Source: Candidatus Beckwithbacteria bacterium (GTDB taxonomy: Bacteria; Patescibacteriota; Microgenomatia; UBA1400; CG1-02-47-37). Taken from it: a DNA stretch of 64,000 bases. The stretch spans positions 9,481 through 73,480 of the forward strand of contig JAPLVF010000013.1 of the NCBI GenBank assembly GCA_026397255.1. Reading direction: 5' to 3'. The translations under genes were made by a program, and so were the position numbers. This document shows, one piece after another, positions 1 through 17,938 of the stretch; position 1 is the stretch's first letter; every line of letters starts with the position of its first letter. The notes beneath the pieces were generated by a model. That model saw nothing but the letters and a program-made list of their open reading frames with translations, ran no database searches and was not told the origin of the DNA.

Positions 1-66
1 TTTCTGATTCTTTCATGATAATACTGATGTTGCCATTTTTTCATATTGTGATAAATTTTTGTTTTA

Positions 67-1629
67 TCATATCTTATAGATCAAAAAATTCCTGTTTCTA
101 TAGACAAGTTGGAAATTAAGGGCGGGATGGTTACTGCTAACGATTAAATATTGGAAGGGGTATTGTTGCTGGATTTTGATGAAATCTGATTCACGAAATT
201 GAGTGGAGCTTTTTAAAGCTTCCATTTTATCTTGCCATAATTTGCTATATTCCCAACTATAAAAAACCGCACCCCCATCTTTGAAGTCACCCACAATACT
301 CCTTTCGGAGAAGTTCCTAAAACCGGAAATGTCCGGGGGAATCAAAAAAACCGCAGTTACCGGCGTATTGACCTTGGCCCATTTTTGCACATCCTGCCAA
401 GTATCATAATGGGCCAGACTAACCAAGGGGTTAGGGTAATAAAGATAGTCAGGCAGATTAACTTTGGGTTTAATTAAGAAAAGCATGACTAATAAATGAC
501 CGGTCAGAACCAAAATAATAAAAAGGGGCAGGTAAGAAAATTTCTTCGGCTTTAATCTAAGCAGTTGGGGTTTAACAATCAGCAGAAAGGGCAGAGACCA
601 GATGGCGGCAAAATGCCAAACAGTAAGATGATCTCCCCAAAAATAAACACCGCTAATAGCCAATAAGGTCAATAGTTTAACGAAAAACGGGCCGGTCGTG
701 ACCAGCCGGCAGCAGGCAGCGCTAAAGGCAATCAAGCTGATAATAAAAATAAAATTTATCGACCGCAAGAGTTGGAGTTGAATTAAATCTGCAACCGGAA
801 TGACGGCGCTAATAATAAAATGAAACAAGAACAACCCGGCACAGATTTTTAAAAATAATTTCATTACATAAGCGTATTTAGAAAAAAGTTTATCATTTAG
901 AACCAGCCAGGATGTACCTAACAATGATAAAAATAAACCAAAATTACCCCAACCGCTCCAACGCCAAAGATGAGGAAAACTATAAGTGCCGCGGGCACGT
1001 AAAGTCTCCAGCCAAGCTTGATTTTGCCCTAAATTTATAAAAGCAAAAAGAGGAAACTTTTTTTGTTTTTTTAGCATTAGCCACAACCACAGCAGGCCGA
1101 CGGGTATGGGAATTGACGGATTAGTGAAGGCCCCTAAAAGAATCAATAATAAACCGGAAATGAATTTCCGACGCAAAATAAAGCTTAAGGCCAGTAAAGA
1201 CAGCGCCAGACTAAGATCTCGGCTGACAAAATAAAAATGATGGGTCATGTAGCCGATTTGGGCGGCCCATTTGGGTAAAATAAATAAAAATACGGCTAAA
1301 AATCCAATCATCGATTGTCGATAGATGGTTTTGGCCAAATAAAAGACAGAGAGATAAAGCAACCATAAGCTTAACAAATAAAGAAGCAGGTGCGTCCAGG
1401 CTAAATTAAGACCGCTAATTTTGCTTAACAATACCGGAACGTAATTAAAAAGAGAATAGCTAGCATGGGGTTGGGAAAAATAATAGTCATTAGGATAAAG
1501 AGAGGGGTTGAGCAGCTTGTTTAAATAAGGCAGGTAGTGATCGTGATCCAAAACGCTAAAATAATAGCCGGTTAATAAGGGGCTGATAAGGGTGAGGACT
1601 GTGACCCAAATAATGTCTTTTGGTTTCAT
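67..1629 (-). CDS. polytopic integral membrane protein, candidate GT-C-type glycosyltransferase
   Basis: 520 aa ORF with many hydrophobic helices. Last gene of a co-directional, translationally coupled operon of glycosylation genes. No recognisable soluble catalytic motif. Confidence 0.55.
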   Translation of the reverse strand: MKPKDIIWVTVLTLISPLLTGYYFSVLDHDHYLPYLNKLLNPSLYPNDYYFSQPHASYSLFNYVPVLLSKISGLNLAWTHLLLYLLSLWLLYLSVFYLAKTIYRQSMIGFLAVFLFILPKWAAQIGYMTHHFYFVSRDLSLALSLLALSFILRRKFISGLLLILLGAFTNPSIPIPVGLLWLWLMLKKQKKFPLFAFINLGQNQAWLETLRARGTYSFPHLWRWSGWGNFGLFLSLLGTSWLVLNDKLFSKYAYVMKLFLKICAGLFLFHFIISAVIPVADLIQLQLLRSINFIFIISLIAFSAACCRLVTTGPFFVKLLTLLAISGVYFWGDHLTVWHFAAIWSLPFLLIVKPQLLRLKPKKFSYLPLFIILVLTGHLLVMLFLIKPKVNLPDYLYYPNPLVSLAHYDTWQDVQKWAKVNTPVTAVFLIPPDISGFRNFSERSIVGDFKDGGAVFYSWEYSKLWQDKMEALKSSTQFRESDFIKIQQQYPFQYLIVSSNHPALNFQLVYRNRNFLIYKI

Positions 1630-2723
1630 AATGATCTAAGTAAACTGATTTCTTTTTTAATGATGGTTTGATTATTAAATCGGTGAAGAACAGTCTGACG
1701 GGCTTGTAAGCTTATGTTTTTCGCTTTTTCTGGCTGATCAATTAAACTTTGAATTCCCTGTGTTAAACCTAAAATAGTATTTTCTACCAATAAACCATCT
1801 TTGTTGTTACTAATAATAAACTGGCTGTAAGGTTTGTCAGCGACCACGCAAGAAAGACCGCAAGCCATCGCCTCGAGCAAAGCCTTGGGGCTGCCTTCAT
1901 GAAGTGAGGCCATGATAAAAATATCACCGGACTGCAAAAGTTTTGCCACTTGATCGTGAGGCAAGGAGGGAATAATTCTCAAATTAACGGATAAATCTTT
2001 AGCCAGAGCCTTTAATTTTTCCTCTAACCTGCCGTTGCCGACAATTGTCAGCCGGATTGGTCGCTGGGTTTTTACCTGACTGACTGCCTTAATAACTGCT
2101 TCAAAGTTTTTCTGATAAACCAACCGGCCGACAGAGATGATTTCCAGATATTTTCCCGGTTTTTTCTTTTGCGGTTTAAAAAGAGCGGTATCCACCCCGT
2201 TGGGAAGCAAAACCAATTTATTTTTAGGGATTATCCGAGAGACTTTATCATACATTTCCGGGTTAGTGACAATAACCCGATCGCTAAATTTCAAGCCAAA
2301 ATATTCCGTCAATTTAATAAACGGAGGGATTAAATGATGATCTTCTTTTTTGGCAAAATAAGTATAATCATAACCGTAAGTACTGACTAAAATGGTCGGC
2401 CATAAAATTTTGGCAATTATTCCCGGCCAAATTCCTAATATTTGTTTAACTCTTAAAACCTGACACGATTTTAATTGCTTAAAGTAAATAAAAGGAATTA
2501 AAAAAGTATAAATAAATCTTGGTAGCCCGGTTTTATTAACAAATAGTTGAATATATTTGGGGAAGGGGTTAGGTTCGTCATCATAGGAAAAAACAAAGGG
2601 CCGGCCAAAGGCCGGTAAATAATATTTTAAATAATTGTTAAACCAATGAATGTCCCGACCGCTTTGACGATAGGTTTTAAAACTGTCTCCCAAGTTTAGT
2701 AGAATCCCCAACTGAGGTTTCAT
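1626..2723 (-). CDS. glycosyltransferase family 4 (GT-B, retaining)
   Basis: C-terminal EX7E-type motif HEGSPKALLEAMACGLSCVV typical of GT4. Start overlaps the upstream stop (ATGA). Confidence 0.8.
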   Translation of the reverse strand: MKPQLGILLNLGDSFKTYRQSGRDIHWFNNYLKYYLPAFGRPFVFSYDDEPNPFPKYIQLFVNKTGLPRFIYTFLIPFIYFKQLKSCQVLRVKQILGIWPGIIAKILWPTILVSTYGYDYTYFAKKEDHHLIPPFIKLTEYFGLKFSDRVIVTNPEMYDKVSRIIPKNKLVLLPNGVDTALFKPQKKKPGKYLEIISVGRLVYQKNFEAVIKAVSQVKTQRPIRLTIVGNGRLEEKLKALAKDLSVNLRIIPSLPHDQVAKLLQSGDIFIMASLHEGSPKALLEAMACGLSCVVADKPYSQFIISNNKDGLLVENTILGLTQGIQSLIDQPEKAKNISLQARQTVLHRFNNQTIIKKEISLLRSL

Positions 2724-2727
2724 AAGC

Positions 2728-3792
2728 TTATTTTAACCGCAAATGGCAACAACCGACACACTGAGTCCGGAATTTTCCCGCCTTAATCTGTTGCCGGAAC
2801 CTTCGGTAAACGGAATTATTCCACAACTTCATAAACGGAGTGTCTAAAACTGAGCCGATTTTTAAGTTAAAACAGGGGTAGACATCGCCGAAAGGAGAAA
2901 TCCTCGCCAAATGAAAGATTTTATTACAATAAAGACGGCTTAAATCGACTTTGCCGGAATAATAATCAACAACTTCTGGTAAAGACAGGCTGGGCGAGAA
3001 ACTTAATCTAACGCCAAGTTTTTCAGCGGTTATCATGGCCAACTGCAAGCTTTTTGCTAATTTTGTTTTGGGAAGTTTTAAAAGTTTCTGACAGTAATCT
3101 ATTTTTAAATGTCGTAAATTTGGATGTAAATCGTAGCCGGAACGATCTAAGGACGGGTCAAGCAGCTGAAAGTTAAGCCAGTCAACTTTTAAGTCTTTGG
3201 CCAATTTAACTGTTTGATCCAAGAGTGGATAGTTTTGCGGTAAAATTAAAGAATTCATTGTAATCGTCGGCGTTGGTTTATTCTGTTGTTGTTTTTCCAG
3301 CTGAATCAGCTTTAAACTATGCAGTGTTTTTTTAAAACTGCCTTTGCCCCGACCTTGGTCATGAATCGCCGCTGTCGGTCCGTCAAGGGAAAACATCAAG
3401 GTATCCAAATCGAAGCTAATCAAAGCTTTAATCTGCTCTTTAGTAGCGGCGGTTAAGTTGGAAATCATGCCGACACGGTGCTTTTTCTTAGCATAAGCAA
3501 CAATGGTTAAAATATCTTTATGAATTAACGGCTCACCACCAGTAAAAGACAAAGCAGTTTGAGCGGGAACCTGATCAATGACTTTTAAAATTTCCAGAGT
3601 TAATAACTGTTTCCGTCGGGTAATTTTTTTCACCACTTCTTCCTGACGCAGATAGCAAAAAGTGCAGTTTAAATTACAGCCATAAAGGATTTCAAAAACC
3701 ACATTGATGGGAAATGGCGACCAACCGTTAGGCCAAAAAGAGAAAAATTGCTCGTAAACCGGGGCTAACTTTCTTTTAATTACTTGGAGCAT
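2728..3792 (-). CDS. radical SAM enzyme with C-terminal SPASM/twitch-like Cys cluster
   Basis: CNLNCTFCY (CxxxCxxC) near the N-terminus. C-terminal cysteines YCNK...YPCF...CVGCCH suggest an auxiliary Fe-S domain. Confidence 0.8.
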   Translation of the reverse strand: MLQVIKRKLAPVYEQFFSFWPNGWSPFPINVVFEILYGCNLNCTFCYLRQEEVVKKITRRKQLLTLEILKVIDQVPAQTALSFTGGEPLIHKDILTIVAYAKKKHRVGMISNLTAATKEQIKALISFDLDTLMFSLDGPTAAIHDQGRGKGSFKKTLHSLKLIQLEKQQQNKPTPTITMNSLILPQNYPLLDQTVKLAKDLKVDWLNFQLLDPSLDRSGYDLHPNLRHLKIDYCQKLLKLPKTKLAKSLQLAMITAEKLGVRLSFSPSLSLPEVVDYYSGKVDLSRLYCNKIFHLARISPFGDVYPCFNLKIGSVLDTPFMKLWNNSVYRRFRQQIKAGKFRTQCVGCCHLRLK

Positions 3793-3881
3793 AAAGATGA
3801 ATATAAGTCTAAATGAGTCTCTAAAATTTGTCCACGCTCAAATGATTAAAGTGTCTCCCGGTGATAAAAATAAACCTAAAT

Positions 3882-4658
3882 TCATAAGGATTTTTTAATA
3901 ACTATTCTAAACCCGGTTGATTCATTAATATTTTGGCCGGCTTTGGCTTTTTTATATAAAGCAATTTTTGAGTATAAGCGCAAAGATAATCCGCCCAATA
4001 AATCAATAAAGCCGATCCAAGGTGAATCATAAGTCACCGCTCTGAGGCTGATAATGTCAAAACCGGCTCTTTTAAGGATATTTTTAGCCTGAGCTAAAGA
4101 ATACTCAATTTTATGGTCCGGGTCGGCAAACGGGTTTAAGCCGACTTTTTTTTGCAGCTGCTTCCAGGAAGTATTGAGATTAGGAATAGCAATAAAAGCC
4201 AAACCCCGGGGCTTTAATAACCGCCGAATTGAGGCTAATAACTGATTTCGTCTAATAATGTGCTCTAAAACATCCAAGCAAAGAATTTTGTCAAATGACT
4301 GGTCTTTAAATTTTAATTTTTGCTCTAAATTAAATTGTCTAAAAACAACATTGGTAATATGCTTATCAGCGGCGGAATTTCTAGCAATGGTGAGTTGTTT
4401 TCGGTCATAATCCAAACCGATAATTTTCCGGCATTTAACGGCAGTCTTTAAAGTGTGCTGACCGTTATGACAGCCAAGGTCCAAAACCACATCCTGCCGG
4501 TTAATATCCGCCAAATACCAGAGCGGCTCGATGTTAATCAAATGTTTTGGGTGAATGGCATATTTACTTTTACCGGTAAGCTGCACCAGTCTCATGGAAA
4601 CAGCGGACAGGACTTTAGTTTTTTTTATTAACCAAACAAAAGGATAAAGTAATTTCAT
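3882..4658 (-). CDS. class I SAM-dependent methyltransferase
   Basis: Motif I VLDLGCHNGQ and motif ILCLDVLEHI of Methyltransf_11/12-like proteins. Confidence 0.7.
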   Translation of the reverse strand: MKLLYPFVWLIKKTKVLSAVSMRLVQLTGKSKYAIHPKHLINIEPLWYLADINRQDVVLDLGCHNGQHTLKTAVKCRKIIGLDYDRKQLTIARNSAADKHITNVVFRQFNLEQKLKFKDQSFDKILCLDVLEHIIRRNQLLASIRRLLKPRGLAFIAIPNLNTSWKQLQKKVGLNPFADPDHKIEYSLAQAKNILKRAGFDIISLRAVTYDSPWIGFIDLLGGLSLRLYSKIALYKKAKAGQNINESTGFRIVIKKSL

Positions 4659-5836
4659 GTTAAGCGGCGATAAAGAGCTAAATACTGGTTAATAATTTGT
4701 TGGCGGTTAAAGCGTGTTTGTAATAATTCTAAACTTTTTTGGGAAAATTGTGTTGTATTTTTCATGGCCTTAACTAATGCCTCTGCCACCTGGTCAGGTT
4801 TTTCCGGATCAACTAAATAACCATTGTCTTTCACCAGCTCCTGGTTACCACCGCGATTGGAGGCGACGATCGGTAAGCCGAAACTTAACGCTTCCAAGCC
4901 GGCGCGGGACAACGGTTCCGGCCAGCGGGAAAGAATCGCAAAGGCACTTGCCTGTTCATATAATTTCAAAGTTTGCTCATGGCTTAACTTGCCTAAATAT
5001 TTACAGTTCTTGGGAAACTCGGACTTAAAACTGGGGTTAATGTTACCGCAAAAAATAAATTGGTATTGAGGTAATTGTTCGGCGGCCTTAATTAAACAAT
5101 CCGTACCTTTGCCAAAAGACAACTTTCCTACTGATAGAATCATCCTTTTATTCTGGCTATAGCCCTGAGTTTGTCGGGGGCCATGGCCCTGAGCTTGTCG
5201 AAGGGGAGGCAAATTGTAAATCCAACTAACTTTTTTTACTCCATTATCCTGGTAGATTTTAGCTAACTGGGGCGAAACCGCAATTACTTGCTGGCAGCGG
5301 TTTAAAAACCACTTCAGTTTATACTGCCATAACTTGGCCAGAACCAGTTTCCACTTGGCCGTTCCGCCGTATCTTGACTGATATTCAGGAATCTCTTTAT
5401 TAATGTAATAGCCAAAACCACATTTTTTTTGCTGTTGGGTAAAGCATAAGGCTAAAGGGCATAAAAACTTAAAGTCGCGCACCGTCGCTACCACCGGCTT
5501 ATGGGTCAGCCAGCCAGCTAAAACTGCTCCGGGTAAAATATACTTACCGTGAACATGAATTAAGTCAATCTTTTTTTGCCTGATAGTTTTAATAATAAAA
5601 TAAGCTGAATAAAACCAGAAAAAAGGATTATTAAACCAAAGCGGCGATAAAATCCGGCCGGGTTTAATTTTTTTAGGAAAGGGGAATTTTAAATCGGGTG
5701 ATCGACCGCCTAAGTCAGGCGACAAAATAACCACTTTAATCCTGCGGCGTAGGCCTTCGGCTAAAGCGTGCAGGCTGTATTCAGCGCCGGAAACAGCATG
5801 CGGATAAGCGTATTCACTTAAAAAAATAATATTCAT
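4655..5836 (-). CDS. glycosyltransferase family 4
   Basis: RWPEPLSRAGLEALSFGLPIVAS GT4 C-terminal motif. ATGA overlap with the neighbouring gene. Confidence 0.8.
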   Translation of the reverse strand: MNIIFLSEYAYPHAVSGAEYSLHALAEGLRRRIKVVILSPDLGGRSPDLKFPFPKKIKPGRILSPLWFNNPFFWFYSAYFIIKTIRQKKIDLIHVHGKYILPGAVLAGWLTHKPVVATVRDFKFLCPLALCFTQQQKKCGFGYYINKEIPEYQSRYGGTAKWKLVLAKLWQYKLKWFLNRCQQVIAVSPQLAKIYQDNGVKKVSWIYNLPPLRQAQGHGPRQTQGYSQNKRMILSVGKLSFGKGTDCLIKAAEQLPQYQFIFCGNINPSFKSEFPKNCKYLGKLSHEQTLKLYEQASAFAILSRWPEPLSRAGLEALSFGLPIVASNRGGNQELVKDNGYLVDPEKPDQVAEALVKAMKNTTQFSQKSLELLQTRFNRQQIINQYLALYRRLT

Positions 5837-6585
5837 TTTAAAAGAGTGATAAAATTTTGTCCGCCTTTAATTCTTCCAGAACCATCAGAAACATTTTTAT
5901 AAGATGTGCCTGTGGCTAAGATTTTAAAGCCAAGTTTGCGGCAAATTTGTTTCATTTTGGAAACACGAATGACTAGGCTGGTTTGATTGACAGGAGCGGT
6001 AGTAATTTCTTTATAGCCTTTAAGGAAAAAGCGGATTTGATCCAGGGGATTTAATTTTGAAAATTTACCAAAATACAATTGAGCCACTCCGCCAACTTTA
6101 AGACAACGACGGGTTTCTTTAAGATAACTAGTTAAATTCTCATAATTTGGCAAGTGTTGAAGGACAATAAATGAATAGATAAAATCAAGACTGTCGGAAG
6201 CAACAGCAATTGAACAACCGGAGGTGGTAAGAAGTTTAAAATTTGTTTTACCCTGAGAGGTTAAAAATTTAATAACGGTGTTTTTTTCTTCATGAATGTC
6301 AATACCAACCACTTGTTTAAAATAACTACAGGCAGCATTAAGAATTCTCCCCCCGCCATAGCCTATTTCTAAAGCAATTTTTTCTTCGGGATTGTTAAGA
6401 TGTCTACAGACCGTTTGAGTGAGAATATGAAAAGTTAAATCCCAATAACCTCTCTTGATTGATTCATTAATATCTTTTGATTTATCAAACCACGCCTGAA
6501 ATGCAGCCATGCCTTTTTTTTTACTGGCTTTAATGGCTTGGCTGTATTTTTTTCTATGCTTAATTAAATCTGAAGACTGACTCAT
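5833..6585 (-). CDS. class I SAM-dependent methyltransferase
   Basis: LEIGYGGGRILN glycine-rich motif I and acidic motif II (FIVLQHL). Confidence 0.65.
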   Translation of the reverse strand: MSQSSDLIKHRKKYSQAIKASKKKGMAAFQAWFDKSKDINESIKRGYWDLTFHILTQTVCRHLNNPEEKIALEIGYGGGRILNAACSYFKQVVGIDIHEEKNTVIKFLTSQGKTNFKLLTTSGCSIAVASDSLDFIYSFIVLQHLPNYENLTSYLKETRRCLKVGGVAQLYFGKFSKLNPLDQIRFFLKGYKEITTAPVNQTSLVIRVSKMKQICRKLGFKILATGTSYKNVSDGSGRIKGGQNFITLLK

Positions 6586-7682
6586 AATTGATTAAATATC
6601 TTTAGCTGAGTTTTAATATTTTTCCTCCAAGTGAATTTATTAATAACATATTTTAAGGCTATTTTGCCCATTTTTTGCCGTAAATCCGGTGATTTAATTA
6701 ATTGAAGTATTTTTTCCACCCAATCATTAACATCCCCTGGTTTAGCTAAAAATCCTGTTTGGCCATCTTGAATAATCTCTCTTATTGAAGAATTATTATT
6801 GCCAATCACCGGGATACCACAGGCGCCGGCTTCAGTCAAAGTCATACCAAAACCTTCTTTTGAAGAAGGTAAAACCAGAATGTCAGCTAAACGGTAAAGT
6901 AATACTTTGTCAGATTCCGGAACAAAACCGGTAAATTTGACTCTATCAGTTAAACCTAAATTCTGAACCTGTAATTTTAATGATTTTTCCAATGGGCCTG
7001 TGCCGGCATAAATTAAAACTGTGTTTTTGTTGCCAATTTTGTCTAAAACTGTTAGTAAAAATGCCGGATTCTTCCGCTGTTTTAACCCACCGACAAATAA
7101 AATCACGAAATTACCTGCCAAATCCCAGTGATCAATAAGTTTTTGGGGTTTTGGACCAGGCTGGAATTCCTTGCCAACGCCATCATAAATTACAGAAATT
7201 TTTTCTTCCGGATAGTTTAATCTTGTAATAATTTCGTTTTTAGTAAAATGGCTAACGGCAATAAGGTGATCAAAATTCCTGATGACGATTTTATCAATTA
7301 AGTGATTAATACCCTCTTCCAGGTGATGATAGGTAGCGATAACCGGTACCTGAGGATAAAGTTTTTTAAAAACGCTGGCAGCCGGACCGACAAAATAAGG
7401 GTTATGGACGCGTAAAATATCAAATTTTTCTGCTTTATAAGTTTTAATTAAATACGGCAGGACAAAAGCAGAAAATACATGGGGCGGAAACATGGGTTTA
7501 ATCGGGGCATATGCTACAGTTAAGTTTTTGTGTTTCAGATATGGCCGGTTTTTGGGCAGTAAGCTGAAAACTTTAACCCCTGCCTGGCAAAGCCGGTTAA
7601 TTACTTCCCGGTCATAAACTTCCCCGCCGGAATTACTTTCCGGACTTAATCCCAGCTCTGGTGAACAAATTTTTAAACCCAT
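6582..7682 (-). CDS. glycosyltransferase family 4
   Basis: SSKEGFGMTLTEAGACGIPVIG GT4 motif. Confidence 0.8.
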   Translation of the reverse strand: MGLKICSPELGLSPESNSGGEVYDREVINRLCQAGVKVFSLLPKNRPYLKHKNLTVAYAPIKPMFPPHVFSAFVLPYLIKTYKAEKFDILRVHNPYFVGPAASVFKKLYPQVPVIATYHHLEEGINHLIDKIVIRNFDHLIAVSHFTKNEIITRLNYPEEKISVIYDGVGKEFQPGPKPQKLIDHWDLAGNFVILFVGGLKQRKNPAFLLTVLDKIGNKNTVLIYAGTGPLEKSLKLQVQNLGLTDRVKFTGFVPESDKVLLYRLADILVLPSSKEGFGMTLTEAGACGIPVIGNNNSSIREIIQDGQTGFLAKPGDVNDWVEKILQLIKSPDLRQKMGKIALKYVINKFTWRKNIKTQLKIFNQL

Positions 7683-7705
7683 TCCCTTATTTTACTGTAC
7701 TTCTC

Positions 7706-8356
7706 TTAATCTTTAAATGTTGCGCTGGCATTACCGTACAAAACCTGGCTCTTATAATTACTCCAAAGCCAGCGGCTAACATATCTTCTCCGGTACGAAG
7801 CAGTAGCGCTAGTCATTTTTCGGTAATTTTTCAGCATCGCTTGCCTGGACCGATCCTGCGCTTGCCGGGCGGTTTGCCCTTTTATTAGAGTAGTAACCAC
7901 TAAGTTTGACGGTACAAGAAATAATTTAGCCATTGAATCAGTCAATGGCCTAGTGCGTTTATCGGAATCATAGCCTAAAATAAATTTTTGGTTATAACCG
8001 ATAAAGGCTTTAGCTCCCTCTTTGATTAATACTTTACCCAAAGTAATCCCGGCATCACAGCTCCGGGCATAAATGATTGTTCCGGCCACTGCCGATTTTT
8101 TGCCGGTTTCCAAAAGCGGTTCAAAATCCTGACCGGTAATGGTTGTGCTATTGCCATGACCGTTCAAAAACAGAATCGCGGGCTGGTTAGATTTAAGACA
8201 ACTGTCAAAATTCTTTTTATTGGCCTTCTTTCCGGCCAAGTCATAAACAGCGAATAATTTTTGTTTGGCGGCTTTGATTACCAAAGTTGACCAATAATAC
8301 AAATAGTTAGTTGCCTCATCATGATTGGATCTTGTTACCAGAAGTGATTTACTCAT
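7706..8356 (-). CDS. hypothetical protein with a possible caspase-fold (clan CD-like) His/Cys dyad
   Basis: Ordered LFLNGHGNS ... IYARSCDAG segments resemble the His then Cys catalytic dyad order of clan CD peptidases. Weak, motif-level only. Confidence 0.4.
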   Translation of the reverse strand: MSKSLLVTRSNHDEATNYLYYWSTLVIKAAKQKLFAVYDLAGKKANKKNFDSCLKSNQPAILFLNGHGNSTTITGQDFEPLLETGKKSAVAGTIIYARSCDAGITLGKVLIKEGAKAFIGYNQKFILGYDSDKRTRPLTDSMAKLFLVPSNLVVTTLIKGQTARQAQDRSRQAMLKNYRKMTSATASYRRRYVSRWLWSNYKSQVLYGNASATFKD

Positions 8357-8561
8357 TTTGGTAAATTGCCCCGGATACCAAATCTTTCAAATATTCGAGC
8401 TCTACCCGCATTATTGTTTTTCCGATTTCATCTTCTTGTTCAATGTGTTTAATTACCGCCTGCTTATTCAGCCTATTTCCGCCAATTGCCATATTAAGAT
8501 TTTCCGGCATTAATTTAGCCCGAGCCAAGGCAATTTTTTTTATTTCATCTTTCGCTCTCAT
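8349..8561 (-). CDS. small hypothetical protein (70 aa)
   Basis: Second gene of the operon. Overlaps both neighbours by 4-8 nt (translational coupling). No Cys, no recognisable domain. Confidence 0.4.
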   Translation of the reverse strand: MRAKDEIKKIALARAKLMPENLNMAIGGNRLNKQAVIKHIEQEDEIGKTIMRVELEYLKDLVSGAIYQNE

Positions 8562-8743
8562 TTGAGAATTTTTAGTTTAGTTAATATTTCTAAAATCTCT
8601 TTTCCGACCGGCGTGTTTTGTTCGACTTCCAAGTGGGCGGCATTCCAGGTTAACGGTTCGTTAGCAATAACAACGACTATTTCGTTTCTGATAGACAAGG
8701 GCAAATTAGCATAGATTTTCAAAAAATCTGTTCTCTTATCCAT
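8558..8743 (-). CDS. small hypothetical protein (61 aa)
   Basis: First gene downstream of a TATAAT-containing promoter-like sequence. No recognisable domain. Confidence 0.4.
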   Translation of the reverse strand: MDKRTDFLKIYANLPLSIRNEIVVVIANEPLTWNAAHLEVEQNTPVGKEILEILTKLKILK

Positions 8744-8744
8744 G

Positions 8745-8764
8745 TAAAAAATTATAGCACAAAA
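8745..8764 (-). promoter_or_regulatory. putative promoter of the long leftward operon
   Basis: On the minus strand, GTGCTATAATTTTTTACATGG with a perfect TATAAT lies just upstream of the ATG at 8743. It sits immediately 3' of a copy of the island boundary motif. Confidence 0.3.
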
Positions 8765-8794
8765 TTTTACTTTACTTCCCGGCTCTTTTCACTT
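8765..8794 (-). repeat. boundary motif copy 1 (plus strand TTTTACTTTACTTCCCGGCTCTTTTCACTT)
   Basis: Identical 30-mer recurs at 10662-10691 and in shortened form at 12894-12918. Each copy sits at the 3' end of a minus-strand gene. Confidence 0.7.
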
Positions 8795-9448
8795 ACTTAC
8801 AGTCACGGTTAAATTCTGGCCGTCAAAGTCAAAACTGAAAGTAATCGGCTGGTCCAGATTGTTAACAATATACAGATTTCCTAAGGGGTTGGGGCTTAAA
8901 ATTCCCACACCGTATTCTTTGGGGACTTCATTAATCTGGGCAAAATTATGGTCAGACGGGCTATGGGCAGTTAAACCGGCATCTTCAGCCGCCCAATACA
9001 TGAGCGAAGCTAAGTGGCAGACGCCGTCGCCGATCAGATGGCCGTCAGACTTAAACCCTTCTGCGCCGTTAAAATGGGCATTAGTGGTTTTAACTACATT
9101 GGCCGAATAATCGGGCAAAGTCTTCTCATGGAAAGCGAATTTTTCACCCGGTTTTAAAGTAAACTGGGTTTTAAACGGCTGGTTAATCCTGTCCCAATCG
9201 ATCTGACTTTTGTCAGTCACCTGATTATCCAGATAGTATAGGGTTAAGAGAATATTATCCTTAAACACTCCGCTCACAAACTCATTATCATATCTGTTTT
9301 CCAGGTTAATACTATGGGATGATAAAACCGCATTGGACGCCCCCAAAATTTGCGGTTGGGCCAAGGCTAAATGAAGCGACAGAATCAGTTCATAAAGCAT
9401 ATTTAAGGGGATATTATACCATATTATAGGATATTTGCCAAACCCCAC
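8789..9448 (-). CDS. VanW-like domain protein
   Basis: GDGVCHLASLMYWAA resembles the GGVCQ[VS]S[TS]LYNA core remembered for VanW/YoaR domains. Confidence 0.5.
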   Translation of the reverse strand: MGFGKYPIIWYNIPLNMLYELILSLHLALAQPQILGASNAVLSSHSINLENRYDNEFVSGVFKDNILLTLYYLDNQVTDKSQIDWDRINQPFKTQFTLKPGEKFAFHEKTLPDYSANVVKTTNAHFNGAEGFKSDGHLIGDGVCHLASLMYWAAEDAGLTAHSPSDHNFAQINEVPKEYGVGILSPNPLGNLYIVNNLDQPITFSFDFDGQNLTVTVSK

Positions 9449-9468
9449 AGAATGGTTTAATCTAAAAT

Positions 9469-10080
9469 ATGACCGGAAAACTAATTGGGTTGTTTTTATT
9501 GGTACTGGGGCTAACTATAGGAGGAATATTTGCTTTCAGGCCAAAAGAAGTTAAACCAAATTTTAGTCTAAAAGTCGAAAACGGGGTGATGGGAGTTTTC
9601 CACGGCCAAGAAGTGATGCCGCCGGCAATTGACTTGGCTGCGGTTGAGCCGGAGACTCAGGTTCTGGGCGACGCCGACCCAAATGCAGAAAAACATATTT
9701 ACATTGATTTAAGTACCCAAACCCTAACCGCCTATCAGGGAGACAGTTTGTTTATGCAGGTTTTGGTTTCCACCGGAAAATGGGGCCGGACGCCGACCGG
9801 TGAATTTACGATCTGGTCCAAATTCCGGGCGACCCGCATGTCCGGCGGCTCAGGGAGCGACTATTACGACCTACCCAATGTCCCCTACGTGATGTTTTTT
9901 TCCGGCTCCGGGGTTGCCGCCGCCAAGGGCTTTTCCATGCATGGTACTTATTGGCATAATAATTTTGGCCACCCAATGAGCCATGGTTGTGTCAATATGA
10001 GGACCGTTGACGCCCAAAAACTATTTAATTGGGCCGGTATTAATGAAAAAATAACGATCTATGGTCAAGCCCCAGGCTAA
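9469..10080 (+). CDS. L,D-transpeptidase (YkuD domain) with N-terminal membrane anchor
   Basis: Catalytic segment HGTYWHNNFGHPMSHGCVNM with the invariant His...SHGC(V/I) Cys motif of L,D-transpeptidases. Hydrophobic N-terminus. Confidence 0.85.
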   Translation: MTGKLIGLFLLVLGLTIGGIFAFRPKEVKPNFSLKVENGVMGVFHGQEVMPPAIDLAAVEPETQVLGDADPNAEKHIYIDLSTQTLTAYQGDSLFMQVLVSTGKWGRTPTGEFTIWSKFRATRMSGGSGSDYYDLPNVPYVMFFSGSGVAAAKGFSMHGTYWHNNFGHPMSHGCVNMRTVDAQKLFNWAGINEKITIYGQAPG

Positions 10081-11374: not shown

Positions 11375-11986
11375 ATGAAATATGATGAGATGTTTAATAA
11401 AGTAAGGAATTTGGAATTTGATACAGAAATGTCTGTTTGTAAATCTCATGATACGGAACTTTATTTGCTTAGACCATCTGTTCTCTCCAAGAGATTTTCC
11501 ACATATAACGTAAAAAAGAATTTTCAAATATGGCTTAGAACTGTTGCAAGAAATTTTAGACCTAATCATCTTAGGGTTTTTATTGATTTAAACTTAAGGG
11601 TAAGAAGCAGACCAGATTTAAAGGAAAAAATGTTAGTTGCCTTTGATGACATTTTCTACGGTAAAGATCCTAACGAGGTAATTCAGGGTTTGAAAAAAGA
11701 AAAATTTGAACATTTTTTGAACCCAATTGAAATAATTGCTAATTTGTCACAACTTTTCATAATTGAGCAGGCTTACTCATACAACAAAGAAAGCAATTTT
11801 GACCCTCCTACGCTTTTTTACCAAGGATGGATAAGGCAAGTTTTAGATGATATTAAAGAAATTGATAATTTGTGTATGAGTATTTCTAGGGGTCAACCTG
11901 CAGCAGCAAAATATACATCGAAAGAAAATAAAAAAAGTAATAAATTCCAGGCTAAATTAAGGCCCTTGTGGTATATTGAGGCATAG
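11375..11986 (+). CDS. hypothetical protein, candidate restriction endonuclease partner
   Basis: AT-rich ORF convergent with, and overlapping by 35 bp, the DPPY DNA methyltransferase. Possible PD-(D/E)xK-like FDD...E.K segment. No direct homology recognised. Confidence 0.35.
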   Translation: MKYDEMFNKVRNLEFDTEMSVCKSHDTELYLLRPSVLSKRFSTYNVKKNFQIWLRTVARNFRPNHLRVFIDLNLRVRSRPDLKEKMLVAFDDIFYGKDPNEVIQGLKKEKFEHFLNPIEIIANLSQLFIIEQAYSYNKESNFDPPTLFYQGWIRQVLDDIKEIDNLCMSISRGQPAAAKYTSKENKKSNKFQAKLRPLWYIEA

Positions 11987-12812
11987 AATAGTTTTCTTTC
12001 ACTAATCTAAGCTGTTTTTTCTCAAGATTGGATTTTAGCTCTTCAAATCTTTGTATTGATAAATCTAAATACTGTTTTTCAGTGTCAATTCCAATAAATT
12101 TTCTTCCATATAAATAAGCGGCTAACCCCGTAGTGGAACTGCCGGTAAAAGGATCAAGGATTAAATCACCCTTTCTAGTACTGGCTAAAACTATTCTTTT
12201 AAGCAAGTCTATAGGTTTTTGAGTCGGATGTTTTCCAAATTTTTTCTCAATCGGTTTAGGCGTATTAATTGACCAAACTGATCTCATTTGCAAGTTCGCT
12301 TTTTTTAATTGGTCTTCCGGCCAATTACCATCTTTCATCAATTTATAGTTAAAGATGTGTTTACCTTCTTTGTCTTTTCTGGCCCAAATTAGGGTTTCGT
12401 GGCTAGCGGTAAAAAAACGGCAGCTTAAATTTGGAGAGGCATTCGGCTTAAACCAAGCAATATCGTTTAATATGTGAAATTTATTAATTTCTAAGGCCAG
12501 ACCGCATTGATAAATGGAGTGATAAGTTCCACTTACCCAAATAGTTCCATTGGGTTTTAAAATCTTTTTACATAGCTTTAACCATTCTCTATGAAATTCA
12601 AAATTTTTCTTTGTTCCATTACTTAAATCCCAGTCTCCTTTTTTTACACTAACCATTTTCCCGTTTTGGCAGGTGAAACTGCCGCTGGAAAGAAAATAAG
12701 GCGGGTCGGCAAAAATCATATCCACGGAATTCTCCGGAAACTGACTCAAGAGTTTTAAAGAATTACCCAAGTAAAGCTCAAAGTTTAGTTTTTCGTAGTA
12801 AGGTTTTAACAT
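11952..12812 (-). CDS. DNA methyltransferase, N6-adenine/N4-cytosine, beta-class
   Basis: Motif IV IFADPPYFL precedes motif I ILDPFTGSSTTGLAA, the order typical of beta-class amino-MTases (N4/N6 methylase domain). Confidence 0.85.
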   Translation of the reverse strand: MLKPYYEKLNFELYLGNSLKLLSQFPENSVDMIFADPPYFLSSGSFTCQNGKMVSVKKGDWDLSNGTKKNFEFHREWLKLCKKILKPNGTIWVSGTYHSIYQCGLALEINKFHILNDIAWFKPNASPNLSCRFFTASHETLIWARKDKEGKHIFNYKLMKDGNWPEDQLKKANLQMRSVWSINTPKPIEKKFGKHPTQKPIDLLKRIVLASTRKGDLILDPFTGSSTTGLAAYLYGRKFIGIDTEKQYLDLSIQRFEELKSNLEKKQLRLVKENYSMPQYTTRALI

Positions 12813-12926: not shown

Positions 12927-13421
12927 TTAATTCCAATTAGCTAATTTATCGTATAGCTTGGTTTCTTTTAATCTCCACATCATCATATCTTTACTTACCC
13001 AGTAATTTTTTGCTAATTCACTCCAAGATAAAGAGATAAGCCGTTCCGCTTTTATCAATTGTAAAGGCACTAATAATTCGGCGGCAAATTTATTAGCGGC
13101 CACCTCATCGGGATTTTTATTTGAAAAGTCTATTGTTCTGAAACCAGAATTATGCCCCATTAAAATATGCCCCAATTCATGAGCGATCGTATACCTTATC
13201 CTTGTTTCAGGTTTTTTATTATTATATATAATCTGAGTCGTTCCAACACTAAAACCATCCTCATCACCTAAATCTTTGCCTTGAACGGAAATTTTAAAGT
13301 CTACTTGTTTTAAAATTAAGTTTAGTCGAATTGGGGGAATTTTTTGAACACTTTGCTTAATAAGATTTCTGGCAAGTTTTAAAGCAAATCCATTGTCATT
13401 TGGTTCATCTTGAAAATTCAT
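12927..13421 (-). CDS. ImmA/IrrE-family zinc metallopeptidase
   Basis: HELGHILMGH HEXXH motif in a ~160 aa protein immediately downstream of, and overlapping, an XRE HTH gene (COG2856-type arrangement). Confidence 0.8.
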   Translation of the reverse strand: MNFQDEPNDNGFALKLARNLIKQSVQKIPPIRLNLILKQVDFKISVQGKDLGDEDGFSVGTTQIIYNNKKPETRIRYTIAHELGHILMGHNSGFRTIDFSNKNPDEVAANKFAAELLVPLQLIKAERLISLSWSELAKNYWVSKDMMMWRLKETKLYDKLANWN

Positions 13422-17243: not shown

Positions 17244-17311
17244 GACCCTGTTTCTGAATTGTCACCGTAAGGTGCGCGTTCTCAACTAACGTTGAGATAG
17301 GAACCAGGGTC
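17244..17311. other. structured RNA-like element (long closing stem with two internal hairpins, one with a GNRA loop)
   Basis: GACCCTGTTTCT pairs with AGGAACCAGGGTC, enclosing CACC-GTAA-GGTG and TCTCAAC-TAAC-GTTGAGA hairpins. Lies 3 nt beyond the DUF3800 stop on the minus strand. Confidence 0.3.
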
Positions 17312-17314
17312 GCT

Positions 17315-17938
17315 TTATTTAAACGGCCAAATATCTTCAATTCTTCTTGACCTTTTAAGCATAGTTAAATAATCAGAATCTTTTTTTGTAAAGTCAGAGA
17401 ACACTGCCCCAGCTACCATATCAGCCAGTTGAATCAGCGTGTTTTGTCTTGAATCCACAAACTTTAAATCTTTAAAGATTTTACTGTTCTTATTGTCTAA
17501 ACGCCTGGATAAATAAACTCTTAACTGATTCCTTAGGGTTCTCTCTCCTCTTTTATCAACTTTCAATTTTGCGTTTTTTATTGATCCGCCGCTTTGTTTC
17601 AAAACCTGCATGATTACATAGTTATAAAAATCTTCTTTATTGCTTCTTAATCTTTGGCTGCGAATTAATGCTTTGTTAACCATAATGGCTCTAACCCTAA
17701 ACTTAAATGATCTGATAGCGTTGAAAAAGGCTTTGCGAAATTTTCTGTTGGTTTTATTGAACTTAAATTCGTATTTATCTTGTAATTTCAGTTTTCTCCT
17801 TAGTTCTTTAATTGCCACCGAGGTCTTTTCTGCTTCCAGGTTGTCATTGAAAATAACTAAGGCCAACACAAAAATATCGCTTGAGCCTTTTTGGAGCTTA
17901 AAACCTGGATCTCCGGATTCGTCAATAAAAACTATCAT
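17315..17938 (-). CDS. DUF3800 family protein
   Basis: N-terminal MIVFIDESGDPGF matches the conserved iY/F-IDESG start remembered for DUF3800 proteins. Confidence 0.65.
   Translation of the reverse strand: MIVFIDESGDPGFKLQKGSSDIFVLALVIFNDNLEAEKTSVAIKELRRKLKLQDKYEFKFNKTNRKFRKAFFNAIRSFKFRVRAIMVNKALIRSQRLRSNKEDFYNYVIMQVLKQSGGSIKNAKLKVDKRGERTLRNQLRVYLSRRLDNKNSKIFKDLKFVDSRQNTLIQLADMVAGAVFSDFTKKDSDYLTMLKRSRRIEDIWPFK

Follow-up and report, generated by a model that had tools for sequence, protein, structure and literature searches.

We analysed a 64,000-nucleotide (nt) stretch of a Candidatus Beckwithbacteria bacterium (contig JAPLVF010000013.1 of assembly GCA_026397255.1, positions 9,481 to 73,480), hereafter the window, and concentrated on ten consecutive minus-strand genes that span positions 8743 to 67 in the window's open reading frame (ORF) listing. 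With a probability that we put at roughly 0.7, this array is composed of two functionally independent units which are co-oriented by chance in this genome. The first unit (7706-8765) would be a cassette that is autonomous, possesses a promoter of its own and comprises three translationally coupled genes, A, B and C, coding for two small proteins of 61 and 70 amino acids (aa) and for a 216-aa predicted protease. The second unit (67-7682) would be devoted to strain-variable glycan assembly and would include a radical S-adenosylmethionine (SAM) enzyme, here called rSAM, with a single auxiliary cluster. The division is based on the co-inheritance of the trio A-B-C, on the unrelated neighbourhoods in which the trio is found, on the sharp borders of homology at 7699 and 8765 and on the trio's own promoter motif. 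An earlier note, made from the same DNA, had proposed that the whole array is a cluster for a ribosomally synthesized and post-translationally modified peptide (RiPP), with a cell-surface glycan module employing radical-SAM sugar chemistry as the alternative.

The three cassette genes are inherited together. Searching for homologues of C gave 128 proteins of about 214 aa. None of them is annotated, and most are from Patescibacteria. Six of these homologues were viewed on their contigs, and each time a 61-66 aa gene, a 67-95 aa gene and C were found together, in neighbourhoods unrelated to one another. A further 43 loci, a figure that represents a floor and not a prevalence because strict patterns were used, emerged from a pattern scan in which each species was represented by a single genome. 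These come from the Candidate Phyla Radiation (CPR), namely Beckwith-, Gottesman-, Uhr-, Nomura-, Kuenen- and Berkelbacteria and Paceibacterota, and from the DPANN archaea (Woese-, Pace-, Nano- and Micrarchaeota); single genomes of Bacteroidota (Nemorincola) and Omnitrophota are outliers. All 46 loci having readable upstream sequence show the order A-B-C, with the genes overlapping or only a few nt apart. Hidden Markov models (HMMs) of A and B, each built from seven sequences, gave E-values over the loci mostly between 1e-10 and 1e-37; for B, which is present in every related locus, the range is 5e-10 to 3e-36. Both small ORFs, for which the earlier note had also considered a lack of conservation among relatives, are in other words conserved, yet they are conserved with the protease gene rather than with rSAM. 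The families of A and C are sizeable: the A family comprises 1753 clusters at 90% identity in a profile search, and the C family 2406 representatives at 50% identity, essentially all of about 215 aa, in a full HMMER search. No description of the trio was found in full-text searches of the literature.

The surroundings of the trio change from locus to locus. When the other array proteins of the window were compared by BLAST with all loci (comparison loci and contigs are labelled by L-numbers), relatives of the family-4 glycosyltransferases (GT4), methyltransferases (MT) or rSAM were detected beside the trio only in L001 and L002. The gene order that the earlier note had treated as one is kept across the trio loci for A-B-C, with GT4 or rSAM genes attached in these two alone. 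Neither rSAM nor GT4 is found nearby in 44 of the 46 trio loci, and rSAM itself stands beside the trio only in L002 and in the window. When all neighbouring ORFs were clustered, no recurring neighbour emerged, no family being present in more than seven of about 47 loci. Glycan genes surround the trio in L001 and L002, whereas in L004 it lies between a PMT_2 gene and a gene for a PolB-exo-like exonuclease. Restriction or toxin-antitoxin-like genes are the neighbours in L005 and L007, and Fic-type genes elsewhere. Finally, in Paceibacterota/Nomurabacteria-type genomes (L003, L013, L014 and L018) the trio resides within a ribosomal-protein operon, between rplE (L5) and rpsN/rpsH (S8); in L003 (9565-11877) it is accompanied by an unknown gene of 210 aa. 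The idea that A replaces ribosomal protein S14 at this place was considered and rejected, as a 61-aa zinc-type S14 ORF, missed by the gene caller, is present at L003:11692-11877.

A few loci deserve separate mention. Those labelled L010, L011, L012, L019, L022, L025, L032 and L036 are titled 'uncultured Gammaproteobacteria/Pseudomonadales' and derive from third-party metagenome-assembled genomes (MAGs) obtained by co-assembly (binchicken). Their trios share 40-70% identity with those of CPR, beside whose sequences they are placed in the C tree, and the taxonomy on these records is probably wrong. In a Nanoarchaeota locus (L042:1244-1543), a 100-aa ORF consists of the N-terminal helix of A (KFLKTYANLPE) followed by the entire B, and may represent a fusion of A with B or else decay of the A gene. 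The C tree, which is only a quick midpoint-rooted neighbour-joining one, has the archaeal sequences paraphyletic and deep-branching; one Nanoarchaeota and one Micrarchaeota copy (L030, L039) fall within the bacterial clade, where the Nemorincola (Bacteroidota) and Paceibacterota copies are their neighbours. As far as can be judged from such sequence comparison, this suggests inter-domain transfers of C. There is also an archaeal virus, L056 (BK063666.1, Caudoviricetes sp. vir519, host Methanofastidiosa), that codes at 3705-4648 for a C-like protein (26% identity, HMM E-value 1e-18) carrying an additional C-terminal transmembrane tail. Ahead of the gene lies a 66-aa ORF with a ...EEITAETDFGKHIQEQIQKFL motif similar to the B/A core, and the virus would possess a two-gene variant of the cassette. 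It was the sole match among 50,697 phage records, and no trio homologues were found in IMG/VR.

The second line of evidence concerns the promoter. The TATAAT promoter that had been noted near 8750 stands: it is an extended -10 element at 8759-8751, and similar motifs are enriched in relatives. Of 29 distinct bacterial loci, 16 carry a -10-like hexamer that ends 4-14 nt before the ATG of A, and in 11 of these it has the TG extension; for background ORFs the figure is 50 of 250 (Fisher p=1e-4). Among the archaeal loci, 11 of 13 have a TATA-like box 24-38 nt upstream of A, against a background of 38/107 (p=0.0016). Since the background ORF starts were mechanical calls, both p-values are rough. 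A generic promoter and terminator scan of positions 1-9600 performed at chance level (28 promoters found versus 24.5 expected), but the comparative enrichment supports this particular promoter nonetheless. The position of the -10 element implies that the predicted A-B-C mRNA would be leaderless or would have a very short leader. Taken over both domains, the motifs fit a cassette that has its own promoter and is expressed from such an mRNA.

The borders of homology coincide with those of the cassette. DNA homology to the closest relative, L008 (a Beckwithbacteria MAG, 88% identity), covers only 7699-8765, which corresponds to the stop of C plus 7 nt at one end and, beyond A, 22 nt of promoter at the other. 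Past C the two genomes differ: in L008, as well as in L009, C is followed by a convergent gene for a 508-aa membrane protein, and in L009 the first glycosyltransferase gene of the window's second unit, GT4a, is reached only beyond a convergent gene of 1.5 kb. L008 and L009 are contigs of a single Beckwithbacteria MAG (JAZDKF01), whose two copies of C are about 90% identical to that of the window. The L009 copy is broken into ORFs of 82 and 75 aa, either as a pseudogene or through an assembly error, and the pair may reflect two loci or a strain mixture.

How much weight should be given to the compactness of the array itself? From A to the membrane protein gene at the other end, successive junctions are overlaps of 4 and 8 nt, a gap of 23 nt, three overlaps of 4 nt, gaps of 89 and 4 nt and a final overlap of 4 nt. 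The coordinates, the overlaps of 4-8 nt and the gaps of at most 89 nt of the coupled minus-strand operon described in the earlier note are thus correct, although the genes number ten and not nine. However, same-strand overlaps of 4 nt are usual across the window (between 37.6 and 63.8 kb, for instance, the minus strand carries a single long run of overlapping genes), and tight packing by itself is therefore no evidence for a functional operon. On the same strand and just 45 nt upstream of A there is also a VanW-like gene (8789-9400), to which the top promoter match of the region belongs (sigma-70-like, 11/12 positions, 9441-9413). A mechanically called GTG ORF of 219 aa (8789-9448) encloses this match, the gene's own best one; the real start of the VanW-like gene is probably the ATG that gives 203 aa, which is also the call on L057, an identical Logan contig. 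Divergent to it, at 9469, is a gene for an L,D-transpeptidase (YkuD).

Some observations weigh against two separate units. The gap between C and GT4a is only 23 nt in the window, and the two genes are close or overlapping in L001 and L002; moreover, no terminator-like site was found between them in the scan of 1-9600. Read-through co-transcription from C into GT4a is thus likely in this genome, judging by the layout. Glycan genes also occur near the trio in several Microgenomates-type relatives, and a loose functional tie of the trio to glycan or surface biology is conceivable.

What, then, are the three proteins? The 216-aa protein had been called caspase-like, and the predicted structure of C (pLDDT 96.9, 49-sequence alignment) agrees: it adopts the alpha/beta/alpha sandwich of clan CD, to which caspases, gingipains, legumain and separase belong. 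Across the 49 sequences the invariant columns are R9, N65-G66-H67-G68, Y96, C100, L106-G107, I119-G120-Y121, D140, A143 and N151, and D13 is nearly invariant. The invariant H67 (NGHG) follows strand 61-65 and the invariant C100 (YARSC) follows strand 94-98. Such an order, with His before Cys and each after one of two consecutive strands, is the clan-CD arrangement as far as the sequence and the predicted strands indicate. Sequence searches are much less telling. Only 2/49 members of the family match PF01364 (Peptidase_C25), the best with 7.2e-7, and C of the window does not; with the C family as query, a profile search of PDB sequences returned no gingipain, other clan-CD or CPR-C4 chain and nothing else of relevance. 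A, B and C have zero matches in Pfam (for C of the window, none at E<=0.1) and none in NCBIfam, and the full HMMER search of the C family detected no extra domains. By its modelled fold, C is a clan-CD peptidase, but by sequence it is not demonstrably a member of either the C25 or the CHAT family. No signal peptide or hydrophobic segment could be read from the sequences of A, B or C, which argues for a cytoplasmic module. C would be an active cytoplasmic endopeptidase.

Protein A is small but apparently well folded. Its predicted structure (pLDDT 95.3, 61-sequence alignment) consists of helix 3-12, a beta-hairpin (22-26/29-32) and helices 33-41 and 45-56. It is conserved over its full length, with 40-80% identity across phyla and 10 of 61 residues invariant, and the loop between helix 1 and the hairpin holds the invariant N13-L14-P15 and R19. 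The PDB offered no significant fold match for A, and a sequence-profile search likewise gave nothing significant. Protein B has the conserved core LVLARLxxMP...ISIGS...DEIGKxIxExQLxFLR. In hhalign comparisons A and B align with P of 0.0013-0.0019 across 28-29 columns, which suggests that B may be a distant paralogue of A. In a sequence-profile search of the PDB, B matched sigma-E (E 0.6-0.95) and, over a motif of 20 residues, a designed double-psi barrel repeat (E 0.004). An hhalign comparison with the start of sigma-E region 4, a target picked post hoc, yielded a probability of 57% and P 1e-4 over 36 columns for B, and P 0.064 for A; we treat this possible resemblance of B as a weak lead and do not rely on it. 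Both small proteins are free of Cys, as had been pointed out.

Our best guess is that the cassette encodes a cytoplasmic protease together with two partner proteins in stoichiometric amounts. A and B would be made in a fixed ratio with C and might act as an inhibitor or regulator pair, as specificity subunits or as dedicated substrates, so that the three together would form a self-contained proteolytic switch. One may go a step further and suppose, tentatively, that A-B-C is a previously undescribed switch specific to CPR bacteria and DPANN archaea, which are ultra-small and depend on hosts, exchanged between the domains and controlling some lifestyle process such as host interaction, dormancy, cell fate or the processing of conserved proteins. 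This extended version strikes us as possible rather than probable.

A different role for the same cassette would be that of a toxin-antitoxin or abortive-defence conflict module, in which C is a toxic protease effector, A and B neutralise it or sense a trigger, and the unit spreads horizontally. A compact, self-promoted three-gene unit in highly variable neighbourhoods is what one would expect of such a module, and some of the neighbours do resemble those of defence islands: Type_ISP_C restriction, SocA_Panacea antitoxin-like, AAA_21 and Fic-like proteins, as well as ImmA/IrrE with a helix-turn-helix (HTH) protein in L008 and in the window. The spread over two domains, with archaeal copies nested among bacterial ones in the rough neighbour-joining tree, the isolated Bacteroidota and Omnitrophota copies and the archaeal virus having a C-like gene after a B-like small ORF could be explained in the same way. 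In addition, the closest structural relatives of C include defence CHAT proteases (SAVED-CHAT and Craspase). Nonetheless, PADLOC-DB v2 gave no match to A, B or C at E<=1 (rSAM matches its pVip, or viperin, models, via the shared radical-SAM core only), PHROGs gave no match to A, B or C either, and viral collections are nearly devoid of the cassette, as described above. A and C are also strongly conserved, which is unusual for fast-evolving conflict genes, and insertion into a ribosomal-protein operon is as compatible with constitutive housekeeping expression as with a selfish insertion. On balance, we consider a conflict module unlikely.

We find it more doubtful still that A and/or B are simply dedicated substrates, or pro-proteins, of C that have nothing to do with the glycan genes. 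Cleavage could be imagined, for instance, after Asn13 in the YAN-LP loop of A, freeing an active fragment. The invariant residues of this loop are compatible with the idea, and so is the invariant Arg9 with which strand 1 of C ends and whose place, assigned from sequence position only, we take to be that of the S1 Arg site of caspases and legumain (Asp/Asn specificity). However, the nearly invariant D13 of C would point to the opposite specificity, every invariant residue of A might be structural (helix caps, core), and B has no equivalent conserved Asn. Our working view of the cassette is the protease with two partner proteins; we now turn to the second unit.

The most suitable reading of genes 67-7682 is a variable glycan-assembly module, ordinary in kind. 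The domains that the earlier note had assigned here, namely three GT4, two class-I SAM methyltransferases and Radical_SAM plus SPASM, were all recovered with Pfam and NCBIfam, SPASM being truncated. GT4a and GT4b meet the Pfam gathering scores of both GT4 domains and GT4c that of the C-terminal one only. From its genomic context alone, the 520-aa membrane protein may be a glycan polymerase, a ligase or a membrane glycosyltransferase. GT4a orthologues are found in L001, L002 and L053, and in none of these is MTa present in the matching slot. L001, which has no rSAM, carries an MTb orthologue (65% identity) in the slot that holds rSAM in L002. Slot swapping of this sort is typical of polysaccharide loci. 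Furthermore, the window encodes GT2, GT4, PMT_2, EpsG-like, YfhO-like, GHMP-kinase/HAD and Wzx-type proteins between 19 and 64 kb, and this large glycan island places genes 67-7682 at its edge. The island proper (19604-63827) is for the most part on the minus strand and has, at 33.5-50.3 kb, a run of about ten genes of 440-560 aa, most of them without a Pfam match, which look like paralogous polytopic membrane proteins.

A mildly unusual member of the second unit is rSAM. Its CX3CX2C motif is formed by C39, C43 and C46, and its scores are 72.4 bits for Radical_SAM (cutoff 29.5) and 37.0 bits for SPASM (cutoff 21.5). The C-terminal part contains exactly five Cys, C289-X17-C307 (CX12GX4C) and C345-X2-C348-C349, which are conserved in all six orthologous sequences, including that of the window; these sequences stop 5-8 residues after the final Cys. 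The full SPASM motif for two auxiliary clusters is CX9-15GX4C...CX2CX5CX3C...C, and this seven-Cys motif is absent from all six. The spacing is instead as in BtrN, whose single auxiliary cluster is bound by C169, C187, C232 and C235. The sole PDB match within the C-terminal domain is in fact to BtrN residues 166-226 (E 0.05), with C289 and C307 opposite C169 and C187. HMM searches, by which the earlier note had expected to place the small ORFs and rSAM, gave the Pfam domains of rSAM and nothing in Pfam for A and B; no NCBIfam model reached its cutoff on rSAM, those of StsB (7.3e-26) and of a W-cofactor maturase staying below theirs. No Pfam match to an RRE/PqqD-like domain was seen on any of the ten array proteins. 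The core region of rSAM begins at residue 39 and aligns to residues ~98-110 of SkfB, StsB, AlbA and CteB, and an N-terminal peptide-binding domain like that of these maturases is accordingly absent.

The genomic context of rSAM points in the same direction. Orthologues with 61-81% identity are present in L002 and L051-L054, where the order GT4a-GT4b-rSAM-GT4c is kept, and they lie between GT4b and GT4c wherever these flanks are on the contig: GT4b is directly upstream in L002, L051, L052 and L053, and GT4c directly downstream in L002, L052, L053 and L054. A metagenome scan with rSAM found only close relatives plus one distant homologue. A distant rSAM/SPASM homologue, L055 (26% identity), is located between a sugar epimerase/dehydratase and a GT2 gene, beside a B12-radical-SAM gene and more GT2 genes. 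Such surroundings, together with the glycan island, support the glycan alternative of the earlier note for 67-7682, and we infer that rSAM tailors a sugar, either a nucleotide-sugar or a lipid-linked glycan, and not a peptide. Its scores, however, are mixed between peptide-modifying and cofactor- or sugar-modifying enzymes, which counts against this assignment: the best PDB sequence match is SkfB (1.9e-7, via the shared core), followed by BlsE (1.1e-6), while BtrN reaches E=0.05 only.

The RiPP proposal, in which A and/or B are precursors, C is the leader protease and rSAM, the methyltransferases and the GT4s produce a methylated or glycosylated peptide, can be recommended by the co-oriented, packed succession of small ORFs, protease, methyltransferases, rSAM/SPASM and glycosyltransferases, by the same arrangement in L002 and by subthreshold matches of the GT4s to TIGR04157, a glycosyltransferase family linked to an rSAM peptide system, but it is very improbable given that the small ORFs travel with C and, in nearly all loci, far from any rSAM or GT4, that a convergent gene follows C in the closest relative, that L001 has the trio and GT4s yet no rSAM, that A is a conserved folded 61-aa domain without a leader-plus-variable-core shape, that neither A nor B has Cys, and that rSAM has no RRE, no full SPASM and no NCBIfam RiPP maturase model at cutoff.

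The features of the array are collected in the table below. Outside it, the only Rfam match in the window is a DUF3800-IX RNA (RF02968, 64 bits; 17244-17315, plus strand), located directly upstream of a DUF3800 protein gene (17315-17938, minus strand). A DNA N6/N4 methyltransferase gene (11952-12812) overlaps, convergently, a 203-aa unannotated ORF (11375-11986), which may encode its restriction endonuclease partner. Adjoining is a gene for an ImmA/IrrE-type M78 peptidase (12927-13421), and a similar HTH plus ImmA/IrrE pair is found just upstream of the trio in L008.

Table. Features of the ten-gene array and its promoter, in order of transcription
Feature	Position	Strand	Remarks
Promoter of the A-B-C cassette	8751-8765	-	Extended -10: TG 8759-8758, TATAAT 8756-8751; 7 nt before the ATG of A
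Gene A, 61 aa	8558-8743	-	Small folded protein without Cys; no Pfam family
Gene B, 70 aa	8349-8561	-	Small protein without Cys; start overlaps the stop of A (ATGA)
Gene C, 216 aa	7706-8356	-	Predicted stand-alone clan-CD (caspase/gingipain/CHAT fold) cysteine peptidase
GT4a, family-4 glycosyltransferase	6582-7682	-	Glycos_transf_1 6.9e-45 (153 bits), Glyco_transf_4 2.8e-22 (80 bits); first gene of the glycan module
MTa, class-I SAM methyltransferase	5833-6585	-	Methyltransf_11 2.5e-13
GT4b, family-4 glycosyltransferase	4655-5836	-	Glycos_transf_1 7.1e-25 (88 bits), Glyco_transf_4 2.3e-20 (74 bits)
MTb, class-I SAM methyltransferase	3882-4658	-	Methyltransf_31 2.4e-21
rSAM, radical-SAM enzyme with truncated SPASM (twitch-like) C-terminal domain	2728-3792	-	Radical_SAM 6.5e-20, SPASM 4.1e-9
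GT4c, family-4 glycosyltransferase	1626-2723	-	Glycos_transf_1 2.5e-33 (115 bits); N-terminal domain below cutoff (25 vs 28.5)
520-aa polytopic membrane protein	67-1629	-	C-terminal DUF6798 6.2e-12; hydrophobic sequence

It remains to compare both units with known systems, starting with rSAM. The radical-SAM core is common to rSAM and to the RiPP maturases SkfB, AlbA, StsB, CteB and PapB. The latter, however, have an N-terminal RRE (RiPP recognition element) domain of about 100 aa, and RiPP SPASM maturases bind two auxiliary clusters with 7-8 Cys, whereas the core of rSAM starts at residue 39, its C-terminal part has five Cys and no precursor travels along with it. There is a weak likeness to the sugar-modifying twitch enzymes BtrN (2-deoxy-scyllo-inosamine dehydrogenase) and BlsE (cytosylglucuronate decarboxylase), and rSAM is embedded between glycosyltransferases; it differs from BtrN in the additional conserved fifth Cys, C349. 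Mining of CPR genomes for radical-SAM peptide clusters would thus meet a false positive here, and the RiPP lead should be dropped. What the glycan part adds is a candidate sugar-tailoring rSAM that would have one auxiliary cluster; hardly any work exists on the surface glycans of this lineage.

As for C, gingipains (MEROPS C25, clan CD; RgpB and Kgp of Porphyromonas gingivalis) are secreted multi-domain proteins with a catalytic part of more than 400 aa plus an Ig-like domain and a covalent prodomain. In contrast, C is a cytoplasmic single-domain protein of 216 aa, 13-14% identical to gingipains and always accompanied by two separate small proteins. CHAT proteases (SAVED-CHAT, Craspase TPR-CHAT/Csx29, the anti-sigma DdvA) are fused to SAVED, tetratricopeptide repeat (TPR) or transmembrane sensors and reside in CRISPR or CBASS loci, whereas C has no extra domain, no CRISPR/CBASS neighbours and no PADLOC match. 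Separase with securin and the prodomains of clan-CD zymogens offer a mechanistic analogy only, with no sequence relationship to A-B-C; securin is intrinsically disordered, while A is compact and folded. CPR-C4 is, like C, a conserved and formerly hypothetical cysteine protease of CPR bacteria (PMC9108980). It has a vasohibin/transglutaminase-like fold with a Cys61-His93-Leu115 triad and is transcribed alone; the identification of C as CPR-C4 was rejected, since the fold is another and the order of catalytic residues is Cys before His (PMC9108980). We found no description of an arrangement in which a stand-alone 216-aa clan-CD domain is tied to two small proteins, one of which, A, has no recognised fold. 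C would be a minimal protease of the caspase/gingipain fold that current family libraries miss, and the cassette an unannotated unit with thousands of members, common to both great radiations of ultra-small symbiotic prokaryotes. With about 1 kb of DNA and three soluble proteins, it could show by what means a bare clan-CD protease, one that lacks fused sensors, is controlled or targeted.

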